Of a DNA stretch of 64,000 nucleotides, positions 23,613 through 63,920 are shown piece after piece. Below the pieces are notes generated by a model that was given only the letters and a program-made list of their open reading frames with translations, had not been told where the DNA came from and searched no databases. Numbering within the stretch: the first letter of the stretch is position 1; each line of letters opens with the position of its first letter. The translations under genes were made by a program, and so were the position numbers. The stretch lies in the NCBI RefSeq assembly GCF_053078305.1, contig NZ_CP166879.1. One strand, given 5' to 3'.

Positions 23613-23778
23613 TGTTTAATCCTTTTGGTTTAAACCAGATGAAGCATCTTACGCTTACGCCAAAAAAGAAAGCAATTAACGGTGTATGACTTTGCAGATA
23701 ATTGTGACAAAGCTCTCTATTGACGTAATCACAGACTTATAAGGGAGATACTCGCATTGGTGTGCGCTCACGACAGGT

Positions 23779-23816
23779 AAAAAAAAACCTGCCAGCGATG
23801 GCAGGTTTTTTATAAC
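23779..23816. terminator. Rho-independent terminator downstream of bipA (palindromic, usable in both directions)
   Basis: A-run, hairpin cctgccagcgatggcagg, then T-run, immediately 3' of the bipA stop. Confidence 0.75.
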
Positions 23817-23828
23817 TAAAAAACGAAA

Positions 23829-25652
23829 TTAATCGTCTTTCGGTGCGCGGTTGGCGCGGCGACGATCGTTTTCCGTCAGGTGACGTTTACGAATACGGAT
23901 AGAGGTCGGAGTCACTTCTACCAGTTCGTCATCATCGATGAACTCCAGAGCTTGTTCCAGAGTCATGCGGATAGGCGGAACCAGAACAACGGCTTCGTCA
24001 GTACCGGAAGCACGCATGTTGGTCAGTTTCTTACCGGTCAGGCAGTTTACAGTCAGGTCGTTAGAGCGGCTATGAATACCGATAATCTGACCTTCGTAAA
24101 CTTCTGCACCGTGACCGAGGAACAGCTTACCGCGATCCTGCAGACCGAACAGCGCGAACGCGACCGCTTTACCCTGACCGTTAGAGATCAGTACACCGTT
24201 CTGACGCTGACCCACTTCGCCCGGACGTACGTCGTCGTAGTGGCTGAAGGTGGAGTACAGCAGACCCGTACCGGAAGTCATGGTCATGAACTCAGAACGG
24301 AAGCCAATCAGACCACGGCTTGGAATCACGTAGTCGAGACGTACGCGGCCTTTACCGTCTGGATTCATGTTTTTCAGGTCGCCTTTACGTTCGCCCAGCG
24401 CCTGCATTACAGAACCCTGATGCTGTTCTTCAACGTCCAGAGTCACGTTTTCATACGGCTCTTGTTTACGACCGTCGATTTCACGGAAGATAACTTTCGG
24501 ACGGGATACCGCCAGTTCGAAACCTTCACGACGCATGTTTTCGATCAGAACAGACAGGTGTAGTTCGCCACGACCAGAAACGCGGAACGCATCAGCGTCT
24601 TCGGTTTCTTCTACGCGCAGCGCAACGTTGTGTACCAGTTCTTTGTTCAGACGATCCAGGATCTGACGAGACGTTACGAACTTACCTTCTTTACCGCAGA
24701 ACGGCGAGGTGTTAACGCAGAAGAACATAGAAACGGTCGGCTCATCAACGGAGAGTGCCGGCAGCGCTTCAACGTTTTGCGTGTCGCAAACGGTGTCAGA
24801 AATGTTCAGTTCGCCCAGGCCCGTGATCGCCACGATATCGCCAGCTTCCGCCAGATCGGTTTCGATACGTTCCAGACCGAGGTGGCCCAGCACTTTACCG
24901 ACTTTCGCGTTACGGGTTTTGCCTTCGCTATCGATGATAGTGACCTGCTGGTTCGGCTTCACTTTACCGCGCTTGATGCGGCCAATGCCGATAACGCCAA
25001 CATAGCTGTTGTAATCGAGCTGAGAAATCTGCATCTGGAACGGACCGTCAAGGTCAACGTCCGGCGCAGGAACGTGATCAACAATCGCCTGATACAGCGG
25101 GGTCATGTCTTCCGCCATATCTTCGTGGTCCAGACCCGCGATACCGTTCAGCGCAGAAGCGTAAACGATCGGGAAGTCCAGCTGCTCGTCGGTCGCGTCG
25201 AGGTTAACGAACAGATCGAATACCTGATCCACAACCCAATCAGGACGCGCGCCAGGGCGGTCAACTTTGTTGATAACAACAATCGGCTTCAGGCCGTAAG
25301 CAAACGCTTTTTTGGTTACGAAGCGCGTTTGCGGCATCGGGCCGTCAAATGCGTCAACCACCAGCAGCACTGAGTCTACCATGGACATTACACGTTCAAC
25401 TTCACCACCGAAGTCGGCGTGCCCCGGGGTATCAACGATGTTGATACGGTAATCATTCCATTTGATAGCGGTGTTTTTCGCGAGGATGGTAATCCCACGC
25501 TCTTTCTCCAAATCGTTGGAGTCCATCACGCGCTCTTGGGTTTCGGCACGAGAGTCGAACGTACCGGATTGTTGGAGCAGCTTGTCTACCAGGGTGGTTT
25601 TACCATGGTCTACGTGCGCGATGATGGCGATATTACGCAATTTTTCGATCAC
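23829..25652 (-). CDS. bipA: Ribosome-associated translational GTPase BipA/TypA
   Basis: 607-aa ORF with G1 motif [17 protein letters not shown] and NKVD; EF-G-like domain layout. Confidence 0.95.
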
Positions 25653-25802
25653 AACTTTGCCTCAGGCATTAGAAATAGCGCGTTATTGTACACGGATTAA
25701 TCGCACTACAAAACAGGATCACAAACATCCTCCGCAAACAAGTATTGCAGAGTCCCTTTGTGATCGCTTTCACGGAGCATAAAAAGGGTTATCCAAAGGT
25801 CA

Positions 25803-25941
25803 TTGCACCAATATGGTGCTTAATGTTTCCATTGAAGCACTATATTGGTGCAACATTCACATCATGGTGCAGCCCTTTTGCACGATGTTAAGCATGATAA
25901 CGCCTTTTAGGGGCAATTTAAAAGTTGGCACAGTTTTCGCT
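25803..25941 (+). promoter_or_regulatory. glnA control region: NtrC enhancer sites and sigma-54 promoter glnAp2
   Basis: NtrC-type palindromes ttgcaccaatatggtgct (25803..25820) and gcactatattggtgca (25837..25852); sigma-54 -24/-12 element ttggcacagttttcgct (25925..25941) about 85 bp upstream of the glnA ATG. Confidence 0.8.
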
Positions 25942-26024
25942 TTATCTTTTTTATGGCGACACGGCCAAAATAATTGCAGATTTCGTTACCACGACGACCA
26001 TGACCAATCCAGGAGAGTTAAAGT

Positions 26025-27434
26025 ATGTCCGCTGAACACGTACTGACGATGCTGAACGAGCACGAAGTGAAGTTTGTTGATTTGCGCTTCACCGATACCA
26101 AAGGTAAAGAACAGCACGTCACTATCCCTGCTCATCAGGTGAATGCTGAATTCTTCGAAGAAGGCAAAATGTTTGACGGCTCCTCGATTGGCGGCTGGAA
26201 AGGCATTAACGAATCCGACATGGTGCTGATGCCAGACGCATCCACCGCAGTGATTGACCCGTTCTTCGCCGACTCTACCCTGATTATCCGTTGCGACATC
26301 CTTGAACCTGGCACCCTGCAAGGCTATGACCGTGACCCGCGCTCCATCGCGAAGCGCGCTGAAGATTACCTGCGTTCTACTGGCATTGCCGACACCGTGC
26401 TGTTCGGGCCAGAACCAGAATTCTTCCTGTTCGATGACATCCGTTTCGGATCATCTATCTCCGGTTCTCACGTTGCCATCGACGATATCGAAGGCGCGTG
26501 GAACTCCTCCACCCAATACGAAGGTGGCAACAAAGGTCACCGTCCGGCAGTGAAAGGCGGTTACTTCCCGGTTCCGCCGGTAGACTCTGCTCAGGATATT
26601 CGTTCTGAAATGTGTCTGGTGATGGAACAGATGGGTCTGGTGGTTGAAGCCCATCACCACGAAGTAGCGACTGCTGGTCAGAACGAAGTGGCTACCCGCT
26701 TCAATACCATGACCAAAAAAGCTGACGAAATTCAGATCTACAAATATGTTGTGCACAACGTAGCGCACCGCTTCGGTAAAACTGCGACCTTTATGCCAAA
26801 ACCAATGTTCGGTGATAACGGCTCCGGTATGCACTGCCACATGTCGCTGTCTAAAAACGGCGTTAACCTGTTCGCGGGCGACAAATACGCAGGTCTGTCT
26901 GAGCAGGCGCTGTACTACATTGGCGGCGTAATCAAACACGCTAAAGCGATTAACGCCCTGGCAAACCCGACCACCAACTCTTATAAGCGTCTGGTCCCGG
27001 GCTACGAAGCACCGGTAATGCTGGCTTACTCTGCACGCAACCGTTCTGCGTCTATCCGTATTCCGGTGGTTTCTTCTCCGAAAGCGCGTCGTATCGAAGT
27101 GCGTTTCCCGGACCCGGCGGCTAACCCGTACCTGTGCTTTGCTGCCCTGCTGATGGCCGGTCTTGATGGCATCAAGAACAAGATCCATCCGGGCGAAGCC
27201 ATGGACAAAAACCTGTATGACCTGCCGCCAGAAGAAGCGAAAGAGATCCCACAAGTTGCAGGCTCTCTGGAAGAAGCACTGAACGAGCTGGATCTGGACC
27301 GCGAGTTCCTGAAAGCCGGTGGCGTGTTCACGGATGAAGCGATCGATGCGTACATCGCTCTGCGTCGCGAAGAAGATGACCGCGTGCGTATGACTCCGCA
27401 TCCGGTAGAGTTTGAGCTGTACTACAGCGTCTAA
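26025..27434 (+). CDS. glnA: Glutamine synthetase (type I)
   Basis: 469-aa [34 protein letters not shown]…; adenylylation-site region present. Confidence 0.97.
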
Positions 27435-27494
27435 TAGTTGAAGTTGTACTACCCGGCGCAACAACGCCGGGATTTAGTTGCCGTGGAAACTTTC

Positions 27495-27522
27495 AGCCCA
27501 TCTCTGCATGGGCTTTTTTCTC
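27495..27522 (+). terminator. Rho-independent terminator after glnA
   Basis: Hairpin cagcccatctctgcatgggc followed by ttttttct. Confidence 0.75.
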
Positions 27523-27539
27523 CGTCAATTCTCTGATGC

Positions 27540-27590
27540 TTCGCGCTTTTTATCCGTAAAAAGCTATAATGCACTAAAATGGTGCAACCT
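27540..27590 (+). promoter_or_regulatory. glnL promoter with overlapping NtrC operator
   Basis: -10 hexamer tataat (27565..27570) immediately followed by the NtrC-type palindrome tgcactaaaatggtgca (27570..27586). Confidence 0.65.
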
Positions 27591-27607
27591 GTTCAGGAGA
27601 CTGCTTT

Positions 27608-28657
27608 ATGGCAACAGGCACGCAGCCCGATGCTGGGCAGATCCTCAACTCGCTGATTAACAGTATTTTGTTAATCGATGACAACCTGGCGATCCATTAC
27701 GCCAACCCCGCCGCGCAACAACTGCTCGCCCAAAGCTCCCGCAAATTGTTTGGTACGCCGTTACCGGAACTGTTGAGCTACTTCTCATTAAATATCGAGC
27801 TGATGCAAGAAAGTCTGGAGGCGGGGCAAGGTTTTACCGATAACGAAGTGACGCTAGTGATCGACGGTCGCTCGCATATCCTTTCTGTGACGGCCCAGCG
27901 TATGCCGGACGGCATGATCCTGCTGGAGATGGCGCCGATGGATAACCAGCGCCGCTTAAGTCAGGAACAGCTACAGCACGCCCAGCAGGTTGCTGCCCGT
28001 GATTTAGTGCGCGGCCTGGCACATGAGATTAAAAATCCGCTTGGCGGTTTACGTGGCGCGGCGCAGCTACTCAGCAAAGCATTACCTGACCCGTCACTGC
28101 TGGAATATACCAAAGTGATTATCGAACAGGCGGACCGGCTGCGAAATCTGGTCGACCGTCTGTTGGGGCCGCAGCTGCCCGGTACGCGCGTTACCGAAAG
28201 TATTCACAAAGTAGCTGAACGCGTGGTAACGCTGGTGTCGATGGAACTGCCGGACAACGTGCGGTTGATTCGTGATTACGATCCCAGCCTGCCGGAACTG
28301 GCGCACGACCCGGATCAAATTGAACAGGTCTTGCTGAATATTGTGCGCAATGCGCTACAGGCGCTGGGGCCGGAGGGTGGTGAAATCATTCTGCGTACCC
28401 GCACCGCGTTTCAACTGACCTTACACGGCGAGCGCTACCGGCTGGCGGCGCGGATTGATGTGGAAGATAACGGGCCAGGCATTCCGCCTCATTTGCAGGA
28501 TACGCTGTTTTACCCGATGGTCAGCGGCCGCGAAGGTGGCACCGGGCTTGGCTTATCCATCGCTCGTAATTTGATTGATCAGCATTCAGGCAAAATTGAA
28601 TTTACCAGTTGGCCAGGGCATACCGAGTTCTCGGTTTACCTGCCTATCAGGAAATAA
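27608..28657 (+). CDS. glnL: Nitrogen regulation sensor histidine kinase NtrB (NRII)
   Basis: 349-aa ORF with H-box [11 protein letters not shown] and the N, G1 and G2 boxes of a histidine kinase. Confidence 0.95.
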
Positions 28658-28668
28658 AGGTGACGTTT

Positions 28669-30078
28669 ATGCAACGAGGGATAGTCTGGGTAGTCGATGA
28701 CGATAGTTCCATCCGTTGGGTGCTTGAACGTGCGCTCGCTGGAGCGGGTTTAACCTGTACGACATTTGAGAACGGCGCGGAGGTACTGGAGGCGCTGGCG
28801 AGCAAAACGCCGGATGTGCTGCTTTCAGATATCCGTATGCCGGGAATGGACGGGCTGGCGCTGCTCAAGCAGATTAAACAGCGCCATCCGATGCTTCCGG
28901 TCATCATTATGACCGCACATTCCGATCTGGATGCTGCCGTCAGCGCCTATCAACAAGGGGCGTTTGATTATCTGCCCAAACCGTTTGATATCGACGAAGC
29001 CGTGGCGCTGGTTGAGCGCGCCATCAGTCATTACCAGGAACAGCAGCAGCCGCGTAATGTTCAGCTTAACGGCCCAACGACCGATATCATCGGCGAAGCG
29101 CCAGCCATGCAGGACGTGTTCCGTATTATCGGTCGGCTTTCGCGTTCTTCTATTAGCGTGCTGATTAACGGCGAATCCGGCACCGGTAAAGAACTGGTCG
29201 CTCATGCCCTGCATCGCCACAGTCCGCGAGCCAAAGCGCCATTTATCGCGCTGAATATGGCAGCTATCCCAAAAGATTTGATCGAATCAGAACTGTTTGG
29301 TCACGAGAAAGGCGCGTTTACCGGCGCGAATACCATTCGTCAGGGGCGTTTTGAACAGGCTGATGGCGGTACATTATTCCTCGATGAAATTGGCGATATG
29401 CCGCTGGATGTGCAGACGCGTTTGCTGCGCGTGCTGGCAGATGGTCAGTTTTACCGCGTTGGCGGCTATGCGCCGGTGAAAGTGGATGTGCGGATTATCG
29501 CTGCCACTCACCAGAATCTTGAACAGCGGGTGCAGGAAGGTAAGTTCCGTGAGGATCTGTTCCACCGCCTGAACGTTATCCGCGTTCATCTGCCGCCGCT
29601 GCGCGAACGTCGGGAAGATATTCCCCGTCTGGCGCGCCATTTTTTACAGGTTGCCGCGCGCGAACTGGGCGTAGAAGCGAAGTTGCTGCATCCGGAAACC
29701 GAAGCTGCTCTGACGCGTCTGGCGTGGCCAGGCAACGTGCGCCAGCTGGAAAACACCTGCCGCTGGCTAACGGTGATGGCCGCCGGGCAGGAAGTGTTGA
29801 TTCAGGATTTGCCCGGCGAACTGTTTGAATCAACGGTTGCGGAGAGTACTTCGCAAATGCAACCGGACAGTTGGGCGACGCTTCTTGCGCAGTGGGCAGA
29901 CAGAGCGCTGCGTTCCGGTCATCAAAATCTGCTTTCCGAAGCGCAGCCAGAGCTGGAGCGGACGTTACTGACGACCGCGTTGCGACATACGCAGGGGCAT
30001 AAACAGGAAGCGGCGCGGCTACTTGGCTGGGGCCGTAACACCCTGACGCGTAAGTTAAAAGAGCTGGGGATGGAGTGA
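28669..30078 (+). CDS. glnG: Nitrogen regulation response regulator NtrC (NRI), sigma-54 activator
   Basis: Receiver domain (VWVVDDDSS…D…), AAA+ sigma-54 interaction domain ([14 protein letters not shown] motif) and C-terminal HTH; start taken at [12 protein letters not shown] rather than the longer ORF-track start. Confidence 0.95.
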
Positions 30079-32558: not shown

Positions 32559-32626
32559 AATGGTTCGTCTTTTAGCCGTTTTATTCAGTATAGATTTGCG
32601 GCGGAATCTAACAGAAAGCAAGCAAA

Positions 32627-32869
32627 GAAAAAAGGCGACAGATTACTCTGTCGCCTTTTTTCCTGACTCATAACCCTTAACGGGTCTTACAATCCTTGCA
32701 GGCCGCCAACACACCCTGTTTTTCCATTAGCCGGAACAATCCGTGTTGATTCCATTTCCGTTTAATTACGTCTCCGGACGTTTGTCTTCCTGACAATCCT
32801 CTGTCTTCGCCTCCTGGCGCTCCTGACCCTCATCCTGAGTCATTGTTCCTGTTAGCGTCCTCGCTCTAT
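32627..32869 (-). ncRNA. csrC: CsrC small RNA (CsrA-sequestering)
   Basis: Minus-strand sequence beginning atagagcgaggacgctaacaggaacaatgactcaggatgagggtcaggagcgccaggaggcgaagacagaggattgtcaggaagacaaacgtccggagacg…, with many GGA motifs, ending in the terminator ggcgacagagtaatctgtcgcc plus T-run; lies in the yihA-yihI intergenic as in K-12. Confidence 0.9.
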
Positions 32870-33896: not shown

Positions 33897-34006
33897 ATAA
33901 AAAACGCCCCAGTCATTACTGACTGGGGCGGCTAAAATATTCAGCCAAATCCGATTACGTGAAGTAAAAGGTCTGAAAGATAGAACATCTTACCTCTGTA
34001 CCCTAC
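33897..34006 (-). ncRNA. spf: Spot 42 small RNA
   Basis: Minus strand reads gtagggtacagaggtaagatgttctatctttcagaccttttacttcacgtaatcggatttggctgaatattttagccgccccagtcagtaatgactggggcgtttttta, matching Spot 42 and its terminator; located between engB and polA. Confidence 0.95.
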
Positions 34007-34153
34007 GCGACTAACTTTACTCTTTTTTGTTCAGTTCAGAAAGCACTTTTTGTAATTTTTTTTCAGTTGTTGCATAGGAATTTCTAATAGCCATCACAAA
34101 ACGTGACAGCTTATGTTGCTTACTTACGAAAAAAGGGCATGTTCAGGCGAATC

Positions 34154-43098: not shown

Positions 43099-43218
43099 AT
43101 GCCTGGCAGTTCCCTACTCTCGCATGGGGAGACCCCACACTACCATCGGCGCTACGGCGTTTCACTTCTGAGTTCGGCATGGGGTCAGGTGGGACCACCG
43201 CGCTACGGCCGCCAGGCA
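43099..43218 (-). rRNA. rrfA: 5S ribosomal RNA
   Basis: 120-nt exact-looking match to E. coli 5S (tgcctggcggccgtagcgcggtgg…gggaactgccaggcat) on the minus strand. Confidence 0.97.
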
Positions 43219-43311
43219 AATTCTGTTTTATCAGACCGCTTCTGCGTTCTGATTTAATCTGTATCAGGCTGAAAATCTTCTCTCAATCCGCCAAAACAGC
43301 TTCGGCGTTGT

Positions 43312-46214
<2,903 letters not shown>

Positions 46215-46397
46215 TCACAACCCGAAGATGTTTCTTTCGATTCATCATCGTGTTGCGAAAATTTGAGAGACTCACGAACAACTTTCGTTGTTCAGTGTTT
46301 CAATTTTCAGCTTGATCCAGATTTTTAAAGAGCAAAACTTCGCAGTGAACCTTTGCAGGTACACTCTGAAGTATTTTTTATTTAATCACTACAGAGA

Positions 46398-46473
46398 TGG
46401 TGGAGCTATGCGGGATCGAACCGCAGACCTCCTGCGTGCAAAGCAGGCGCTCTCCCAGCTGAGCTATAGCCCC
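46398..46473 (-). tRNA. alaT: tRNA-Ala (UGC)
   Basis: Minus strand ggggctatagctcagctgggagagcgcctgctttgcacgcaggaggtctgcggttcgatcccgcatagctccacca; in the 16S-23S spacer. Confidence 0.97.
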
Positions 46474-46515
46474 ATAACATGTAGTTAAAACCTCTTCAAA
46501 TTTGCCGTGCAAATT

Positions 46516-46592
<77 letters not shown>

Positions 46593-46660
46593 GTAGAGGT
46601 TTTACTGCTCATTTTCATCAGACAATCTGTGTGAGCACTGCAAAGTACGCTTCTTTAAGG

Positions 46661-48202
<1,542 letters not shown>

Positions 48203-61677: not shown

Positions 61678-63920
<2,243 letters not shown>

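Follow-up and report, generated by a model that had tools for sequence, protein, structure and literature searches.

The glnA-glnL spacer of an Escherichia coli genome: very probably the O157-type GlnZ small RNA followed by the NtrC-repressed glnL promoter

Introduction

The short spacer between glnA and glnL raises the question of whether it serves only to end one transcript and to begin another, or whether it also encodes a regulatory RNA. The spacer considered here lies in a stretch of 64,000 nucleotides, referred to below as the window. A preliminary description of this DNA had pointed to a terminator, to an NtrC operator overlapping the glnL promoter and to a possible small RNA derived from the glnA 3'UTR, and all the features which it noted were found at or near the positions it gave. 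It can be said with high confidence that the spacer is made up of the 85-nt O157-type GlnZ and the NtrC-repressed promoter glnLp, both of which are known devices.

Gene order and species context

The window belongs to Escherichia coli and shows the gene order typA/bipA (in the opposite orientation), glnA, a spacer of 173 nt, glnL and glnG. The components of this layout are as follows:

23829..25652, minus strand: typA/bipA (open reading frame list)
26025..27434, plus strand: glnA, encoding glutamine synthetase (469 aa) and giving the mRNA from which the small RNA derives (open reading frame list; named glnA in every matching E. coli genome)
27435..27607, plus strand: glnA-glnL spacer, 173 nt (read from the sequence)
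27595..27599, plus strand: Shine-Dalgarno sequence AGGAG of glnL, 8 nt 5' of the ATG (read from the sequence)
27608..28657, plus strand: glnL (ntrB, NRII) (open reading frame list; genome annotations)
28669..30078, plus strand: glnG (ntrC, NRI), encoding the regulator for the operator at 27570..27586 (open reading frame list)

The limits of the spacer follow from the glnA stop codon at 27432..27434 and the start of glnL at 27608. The start of glnG is an internal ATG (MQRGIVWVV...) located 11 nt past glnL, a spacing identical to that of MG1655. A query of 281 nt which spans the spacer (27380..27660) found a match in 5425 of the 5426 complete E. coli genomes; glnA and glnL are both annotated in each of these, and the identity of the query to O157:H7 and UPEC genomes was 100%. 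As for the strain background, the best match in the collection of complete E. coli genomes stands at 99.3% over 24 kb, so that the collection does not contain the strain itself. Two open reading frames crossing the spacer (60 aa on the plus strand and 41 aa on the minus strand) were set aside as chance ORFs.

The glnA 3'UTR and the GlnZ small RNA

Three types of glnA 3'UTR have been described in E. coli by Miyakoshi et al. (2022, eLife; PMC9731577), namely the K-12 type of 197 nt, the O157 type of 85 nt and the O111 type of 230 nt, and the seed 5'-UUGCCGUGGAAA-3' is common to all three (PMC9731577). The O157 form was named Class I GlnZ by Walling et al. in the same year (bioRxiv 10.1101/2022.04.01.486790), and an RNA termed EsrF had been mapped by RACE one year earlier by Jia et al. 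(2021, mBio) as exactly 85 nt long, with a first base “T” adjoining the glnA stop codon (PMC8092317). In the MG1655 annotation glnZ is the ncRNA b4836. The corresponding elements of the window are:

27435..27519, plus strand: GlnZ, full-length O157-type or Class I form (= EsrF), 85 nt, the entire glnA 3'UTR (published length, 5' end, seed and terminator)
27452..27471, plus strand: hairpin 1, CCCGGCG-CAACAA-CGCCGGG, 7 G-C pairs, -13.8 kcal/mol (terminator scan; fold)
27478..27489, plus strand: conserved GlnZ seed (exact match to the published seed, PMC9731577)
27495..27519, plus strand: Rho-independent terminator, stem-loop 27495..27514 with U-run 27514..27519 (terminator scan)

From the glnA stop codon to the end of the U-run there are exactly 85 nt (27435..27519), beginning with a T at 27435, which bears out the segment of about 85 nt given in the preliminary description. 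The element lies on the glnA strand, starts next to the stop codon and carries the seed 5' of the terminator, with a gap of 5 nt between the seed and the terminator stem (which starts at 27495), in a 3'UTR of 85 nt. By its length, 5' end, seed and terminator, which all agree with the published data, the glnA 3'UTR of the window can thus be identified as the already known O157-type or Class I GlnZ, that is EsrF, and the assignment of this region to GlnZ in the preliminary description was right. The alignment with published GlnZ which it had proposed as a check gave a positive result, with an exact seed and with complete identity of the spacer-spanning query to O157:H7. The regulatory RNA had been called “plausible”, a wording which is too weak because experiments have already established the sRNA for precisely this sequence type. 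The published data on it comprise Northern blots, Hfq dependence and the repression of targets (PMC9731577; bioRxiv 10.1101/2022.04.01.486790; PMC8092317), together with its accumulation under nitrogen limitation (PMC9731577; bioRxiv 10.1101/2022.04.01.486790).

In its predicted fold (-28.3 kcal/mol, z = -2.3) the 85-nt RNA consists of hairpin 1 and the terminator with a linker between them. The mean unpaired probability of the seed is 0.61 in the full-length RNA and 0.70 in a 47-nt form, so that in the full-length fold the seed is predicted to be only moderately accessible. The terminator stem-loop (AGCCCAU-CUCUGC-AUGGGCU) comprises 7 bp, four of the seven being G-C, and a 6-nt loop, with -9.5 kcal/mol, and is followed by six U's, the run ending at 27519. 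A “strong intrinsic terminator” at 27495..27522 had been proposed earlier; a terminator is indeed present, but the adjective does not hold in view of the stability just given and of the “moderate strength” ascribed to the glnA terminator in the literature (Ueno-Nishio 1984, as cited in PMC9731577), and the end at 27522 was set 3 nt too far. This terminator is the shared 3' end of the glnA mRNA and GlnZ, and presumably also the Hfq-binding 3' end of the latter.

Hairpin 1 does not appear in the preliminary description, and it is more stable than the terminator.

The glnL promoter and its NtrC operator

The second device of the spacer lies downstream of the terminator and has the following parts, listed together with the related sites upstream of glnA:

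25804..25820 and 25836..25852, no strand assigned: two high-affinity NtrC enhancer sites 5' of glnA, 32 bp apart (consensus scan; role from PMC3870243)
27565..27570, plus strand: -10 hexamer TATAAT of glnLp, 38 nt 5' of the ATG (read from the sequence)
27570..27586, no strand assigned: NtrC (NRI) operator TGCACTAAAATGGTGCA, 16 of 17 positions agreeing with the consensus TGCACCNNNNTGGTGCA

T27570 is shared, being both the last T of TATAAT and the first base of the NtrC site, which fits the pattern TGCACC-N4-TGGTGCA and spans the -10 element and the start region of glnLp. The near-perfect NtrC palindrome reported earlier over the -10 element is therefore present, with the match and the shared base given above. 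The -35 region is poor: at a spacing of 16-19 bp the best hexamer matches TTGACA at no more than three of six positions, which is consistent with a weak basal promoter. When 25500..29000 was scanned for consensus promoters, neither glnLp nor any other plus-strand promoter was called; glnLp was missed because of its poor -35.

NtrC consensus sites with at most two mismatches occur only three times in the 64 kb, the other two, at 25804 and 25836, being the glnA enhancer sites which drive transcription from glnAp2 (PMC3870243). Counted as strand-matches there are six, where 2.0 ± 1.9 are expected; a count of six was reached in 5 of 100 shuffles. The excess is statistically modest and it is the placement of the sites which is telling. 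The same placement is seen across Enterobacterales. Among the 106 spacers listed with both glnA and glnL, an NtrC-like site with at most two mismatches lies between the terminator and glnL in 84; in nearly all of these it begins 29-42 nt ahead of the start codon of glnL, and in the window 38 nt ahead of it. In 68 of these 84 matches listed the first T of the site is also the last base of a -10-like hexamer (TATAAT in 31, TATACT in 23 and TAAAAT in 14). The preliminary description had called this the classic arrangement for NtrC autorepression of glnL; it is a textbook one, and the overlap of -10 element and operator is conserved across genera, as the listed spacers indicate. In the literature glnLp is a sigma-70 promoter under NtrC repression (Ueno-Nishio 1984; Reitzer & Magasanik 1985; both as cited in PMC9731577), a repression which is also given in PMC3870243. 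With the repression taken from this literature and the site read from the DNA, the operator can be regarded as the element of glnLG autorepression.

Primary transcript or product of the glnA mRNA

The two groups of reports on the 85-nt RNA differ as to its origin, and the window bears on this point through the following motifs (in the RNase E motifs a slash marks the cut):

27329..27346, plus strand: CACGGATGAAGCGATCGA, reported NtrC footprint within the coding sequence of glnA, at -106..-89 relative to the 5' end of EsrF (one exact match; PMC8092317)
27409..27413, plus strand: RNase E-type motif AG/UUU within the 3' end of glnA, a candidate cut yielding a precursor of about 109 nt (motif scan)
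27469..27477, plus strand: GGGAUUUAG, reported flhB 5'UTR-pairing motif, overlapping the 3' arm of hairpin 1 (read from the sequence; PMC8092317)
27470..27475, plus strand: RNase E-type motifs GG/AUU and GA/UUU, candidate sites (motif scan)

Jia et al. (2021) hold that the RNA is transcribed as a primary product from a promoter of its own within the coding sequence of glnA, that it is repressed by NtrC at 27329..27346 and rises in high ammonium, and that its main task is the activation of flhB (motility and virulence) through GGGAUUUAG. This interpretation was based on RACE, TEX resistance, deletion of the glnA promoter, EMSA and footprinting (PMC8092317), and the window contains both of its motifs, each at precisely the offset that was published. 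On the other hand, two independent groups found that the O157 RNA is induced by nitrogen limitation and processed from the glnA mRNA, in explicit disagreement with Jia et al. (PMC9731577; bioRxiv 10.1101/2022.04.01.486790), the footprint motif CACGGATGAAGCGATCGA is not among the sites within three mismatches of the NtrC consensus, and half of GGGAUUUAG is buried in hairpin 1. No sigma-70-like plus-strand promoter was found in 25500..29000 either; since the real but weak glnLp was not called in the same scan, the scan neither supports the internal esrF promoter nor detects glnLp. Taken together, we regard an independent esrF promoter with flhB as the principal target as quite unlikely, and a regulation of flhB could exist alongside the GlnZ function.

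Release of GlnZ from the glnA mRNA agrees with the demonstration of RNase E processing for the K-12 and Salmonella forms and with a conserved site for RNase E upstream of the stop codon of glnA (both PMC9731577), to which the AG/UUU motif at 27409..27413 presumably corresponds. A cut at the motifs of 27470..27475 would give a short GlnZ of 47-48 nt (from 27472 or 27473 to 27519); GA/UUU (27472/27473) fits the RN/WUU motif, and cleavage there would leave the 47-nt species. Such a predicted short form is analogous to the Salmonella GlnZ2 of about 50 nt, and a “processed species” of O157 GlnZ has been seen on northern blots, reported without coordinates (PMC9731577).

Spacer types, conservation and hairpin 1

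Junction-specific queries assigned 2856 of the 5426 complete E. coli genomes to the O157 type, 1571 to the K-12 type and 899 to the O111 type (98% together); the window therefore carries the majority form of the E. coli spacer. An alignment of the spacers of the window, of the K-12 type and of the O111 type showed no change in the terminator, in glnLp or in the NtrC site, and each of the three contains the seed. The K-12 type of GlnZ (b4836, 194-197 nt) and the O111 type (230 nt) thus have the seed, the terminator, glnLp, the NtrC operator and the targets in common with the window and differ from it in between. In the K-12 type hairpin 1 is absent, the seed follows directly past the stop codon at +10..+21, and a REP-containing stretch lies between seed and terminator, making the 3'UTR 112 nt longer; in the O111 type hairpin 1 and the seed are set apart by 145 additional nt. 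In the K-12 spacer similarity extends 13 nt beyond the seed into the 5' arm and loop of the terminator (30 of 34 positions identical). An origin of the K-12 type by duplication of the seed and terminator module was considered, and it is mentioned only in passing because the alignment without the seed was not significant (230 of 2000 shuffles).

Beyond E. coli, one genome per species was scanned for GCCGTGGAAACTTTNNGCCC, which gave at least 120 loci. The scan pattern was derived from the window, and the result is therefore a test of placement and architecture and not of sequence similarity. Among the 120 seed-and-terminator matches listed, the C-terminus of GlnA lies directly upstream on the same strand in 114 and glnL lies downstream in 108. 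The matches listed beside glnA range from Escherichia to Yersinia, Edwardsiella and Plesiomonas, and the rest of the 3'UTR varies freely. Two further matches (L034 and L051) lie within 45 nt of the start of their sequence, where an upstream glnA is not visible. The four of the 120 matches listed which have no glnA beside them (L027, L038, L059 and L091) look like chance matches; among the matches listed, none from a named organism outside Enterobacterales lacks glnA except L038 (Rubrivivax) and L059 (Verrucomicrobia), and L027 is a MAG labelled “Proteobacteria bacterium”.

The distance from stop codon to seed in the 114 loci among the matches listed is 8-169 nt. In 38 of them it is minimal (at most 27 nt, with a U-rich run before the seed and, in complete loci, a 3'UTR of 50-69 nt), and minimum-energy folds draw no hairpin in the stop-to-seed stretch of these 38. 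Another 31 of the 114 listed loci are intermediate (28-70 nt), mostly with a GC-rich hairpin in this stretch, and 45 are longer. Unrelated hairpins occupy the position of hairpin 1 in Escherichia, Enterobacter, Serratia, Klebsiella/Raoultella and others. Among the matches listed, the CCCGGCG...CGCCGGG stem of the window recurs only in two Enterobacter loci (L084 and L096), the hairpins of other genera being non-homologous. As these hairpins differ between genera, the conserved core of function consists of the seed and the terminator. Hairpin 1 is a structural module on the 5' side which varies between lineages and is dispensable for the function of the seed.

It has been considered whether hairpin 1 acts as an attenuator, forming together with AUUUAGUU a first, partial intrinsic terminator. 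Part of the glnA transcripts would then stop short of the seed, and the level of GlnZ and the read-through into glnLG would be set in this way. The element was indeed listed by the terminator scan (7 G-C pairs with five T's within the next eight bases), and its fold energy exceeds that of the real terminator (-13.8 vs -9.5 kcal/mol). The U-tract is interrupted, however, the mapped 85-nt RNA extends through hairpin 1 (PMC8092317), the 38 of the 114 species listed with the shortest stop-to-seed stretch (at most 27 nt) have no such hairpin drawn, and exchange of the O157, O111 and K-12 3'UTRs left GlnA and NtrC levels unchanged (PMC9731577). An attenuator at this place must consequently be judged very improbable.

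A more speculative suggestion, which we think doubtful although somewhat less so than the two readings above, is that hairpin 1 is a selected module and not filler, one that would cap and protect the 3' end of the glnA mRNA after the cut at GA/UUU (27472/27473), by which the minimal GlnZ of 47 nt would be released. It could also tune the ratio of long to short GlnZ isoforms. In a comparison restricted to E. coli N96 and two Enterobacter species, covariation analysis of hairpin 1 found one-sided changes only, which carry no information. Should the suggestion of a selected module be true, the repeated independent gain of hairpins would mean that selection acts on the uncoupling of an mRNA from its 3'UTR-derived sRNA.

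Pairing of the seed with target mRNAs

Repression of glnP, sucA and aceE by EsrF/O157-GlnZ has been shown with the use of compensatory mutants (bioRxiv 10.1101/2022.04.01.486790; PMC9731577). The linker of the window (27472..27494) was paired in silico with the sdhB-sucA, glnH-glnP and pdhR-aceE intergenic regions of K-12, the targets thus being K-12-derived. The best duplexes were obtained with sucA at -48..-26 (-20.4 kcal/mol; 8 of 500 shuffled linkers were as good), with glnP at -22..-10, just 5' of the Shine-Dalgarno sequence (-18.4 kcal/mol; 19 of 500), and with aceE at -105..-91 (-20.8 kcal/mol; 1 of 500), and all three coincide with the validated sites. As the K-12 seed lies at +10..+21, alignment with the K-12 spacer places the published G12 and G15 at G27480 and G27483 of the window. 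The partner of G27480 in the aceE duplex is C-99, and this is exactly the pair for which Miyakoshi et al. tested the compensatory changes G12C/C-99G (PMC9731577).

The notion that the 3'UTR does no more than end the glnA transcript and stabilise the 3' end of the mRNA, with no trans function in this strain and with the short RNA as a decay fragment, is scarcely credible: deletion of the terminator slightly lowers GlnA in K-12 and glnZ deletion has mild phenotypes, in Salmonella about 1.3-fold for SucA (PMC9731577), but a 12-nt single-stranded stretch is kept adjoining the terminator after glnA in the 114 of 120 matches listed, this stretch is complementary to three validated targets, and compensatory-mutation experiments have been published, with the O157 form included (bioRxiv 10.1101/2022.04.01.486790).

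The importance of GlnZ is that it ties nitrogen assimilation to carbon flux, a single mRNA giving both glutamine synthetase and an sRNA which lowers 2-oxoglutarate dehydrogenase, the glutamine importer and pyruvate dehydrogenase; this biology was published in 2021-2022 for the exact sequence type of the window.

Proposed model of the locus

The anatomy of the spacer, its identity to the published RNA, the complementarity between seed and targets and the conservation across genera are established from the sequence. Expression, the dependence on Hfq and RNase E, the repression of targets and the repression of glnLp by NtrC come from the literature. The following course of events would fit both. 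Under nitrogen limitation phosphorylated NtrC would activate the sigma-54 promoter glnAp2, and the transcripts would end at the moderate terminator 27495..27519. RNase E would then free the 3'UTR from the glnA mRNA to give the 85-nt GlnZ, and a shorter form of about 47 nt is probably also made, through cleavage of the U-rich run which immediately precedes the seed. Lying single-stranded between hairpin 1 and the terminator, the seed 27478..27489 would pair with sucA, glnP and aceE in their 5' regions and repress them, and 2-oxoglutarate would be diverted to the synthesis of glutamate and glutamine. At the other end of the spacer the weak sigma-70 promoter glnLp (-10 at 27565..27570) would supply a basal level of NtrB and NtrC until NtrC bound to the operator 27570..27586 shuts it off, and by terminator read-through glnAp2 would raise the expression of glnLG when nitrogen is limiting.

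Comparison with known systems

Against Rfam, the element of the window stays below the gathering score of every family, both in 1 kb searched with permissive filters and in the whole window searched at the gathering score. The sole sub-threshold match is RF02766, Ysr49 (Yersinia sRNA 49), with 34.1 bits and E = 1.5e-4 against a gathering score of 95 bits. In Yersinia similis Ysr49 reaches 151 bits (gathering score 95) and runs from the first base past the glnA stop codon through the terminator, from which it follows that Ysr49 is the Yersinia GlnZ. The family covers the entire Yersinia glnA 3'UTR and has the same seed and terminator as the window, the 5' two-thirds of the model being specific to Yersinia. 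The element of the window is not filed under Ysr49 as curated because the homology is limited to the seed and the terminator. A link between Ysr49 and GlnZ is absent from both GlnZ papers (PMC9731577; bioRxiv 10.1101/2022.04.01.486790), and a literature search on Ysr49 found no link to glnA. With queries lying wholly inside the 3'UTR, there is no annotated feature beneath the match in the PGAP-annotated genomes listed, and a broader GlnZ family model would close this systematic annotation gap.

Other 3'UTR-derived, Hfq-dependent sRNAs, CpxQ, SroC, SdhX and NarS, come from separate loci, differ from GlnZ in seeds and targets and bear no sequence relationship to it. They nevertheless resemble it in carrying a seed and a terminator at the end of an mRNA, in their release by RNase E and in a function linked to that of the parent (PMC9731577). 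With regard to the NtrC-repressed sigma-70 promoters glnLp and glnAp1, the promoter of the window is glnLp itself and shows no difference from it. The closest of all known systems is the O157-type GlnZ/EsrF, which is like the element of the window in its position right after the glnA stop codon, its 85 nt, its 5' “T”, its seed adjoining the terminator and its six terminal U's; the two sequences are the same without any difference, and only the strain background differs.

Spacer types of the E. coli glnA-glnL region

The spacer types were counted by junction-specific searches of 5426 complete E. coli genomes. The O157 type (window 27435..27519) is carried by 2856 of them, the K-12 type (L001 356..552) by 1571 and the O111 type (L002 356..585) by 899. 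No annotated feature lies under the matches of the 3'UTR-internal queries in the PGAP-annotated genomes among the matches listed; an ncRNA, glnZ (b4836), is annotated in MG1655 (NC_000913.3).

When the K-12-type copy (L001 356..400) is set against window 27473..27506, the likeness to the O157 seed module runs 13 nt beyond the seed and reaches the 5' arm and loop of the O157 terminator (TCGCCTGTCTCTG versus CAGCCCATCTCTG), and a small hairpin is re-formed by this copy. The K-12 type looks as if an insertion had gone into the terminator itself, leaving behind a direct repeat that diverged, and not as if seed and terminator had been cleanly separated by inserted sequence. Once the seed is set aside, the likeness of the two modules is not significant alone (230 of 2000 shuffles).

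One genome, E. coli AMSHJX01 (NZ_CP030939.1), has an atypical locus (L003), where the match to the spacer query begins at query position 94, just 5' of the terminator. Upstream of it, the annotation gives pseudogenes with frameshifts (a fragment of clsB and a gene of the endonuclease family) in place of glnA, and glnL is also annotated as frameshifted. The locus may represent a rearrangement or an assembly problem.

Hairpins between the glnA stop and the seed

GC-rich hairpins that are unrelated between genera occupy the same spot, between the glnA stop on one side and the U-rich tract and seed on the other; the comparison loci bearing them include L009, L014, L018, L030, L052, L054, L078, L084, L096 and others. 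Among the matches listed, no more than 27 nt separate the stop from the seed in 38 of the 114 species, and the folds draw no hairpin in that interval. The hairpins may be under selection, or they may be neutral insertions that occurred repeatedly.

A rare variant of hairpin 1 (window 27452..27471), CCCGGTGCATAGAAGGCCGGG, was noticed in E. coli N96 (L127 151..200; 92% identity to a 49-nt query). Its stem is shortened but kept, and the seed and terminator of this strain are unchanged.

Other RNAs in the window

The remaining RNA features are listed below. The ES222 match overlaps the NtrC enhancer site 25804..25820 of glnA and ends 5 nt inside the site 25836..25852.

Other RNA features of the window
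2..60, plus strand: SECIS_3 element, known RNA, at the window's extreme 5' end
23776..23844, minus strand: STnc370 (Rfam, 54.9 bits, barely over its gathering threshold of 54); overlaps the typA 3' end
25734..25841, minus (typA) strand: ES222 sRNA (Rfam, 133 bits), typA-glnA intergenic region
32616..32869, minus strand: CsrC, known RNA
33898..34016, minus strand: Spot 42, known RNA
43101..48202, minus strand: rRNA operon (5S, 23S, two tRNAs, 16S)
46222..46330: StyR-44 match, within the rRNA operon
63315..63566, minus strand: Erse sRNA, known RNA

Correspondence of GlnZ and Ysr49

The E. coli element (window 27415..27519) scores just 34 bits against the Rfam family Ysr49 and reaches the gathering score of no Rfam family, and neither of the two GlnZ papers (PMC9731577; bioRxiv 10.1101/2022.04.01.486790) names Ysr49, Yersinia or Rfam. 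In Yersinia similis (L085 5303..5426) the Rfam search returned a match of 151 bits to RF02766, "Ysr49", which starts at the first base 3' of the glnA stop and contains both the GlnZ seed and the terminator. The complete Yersinia glnA 3'UTR is Rfam RF02766, "Ysr49".
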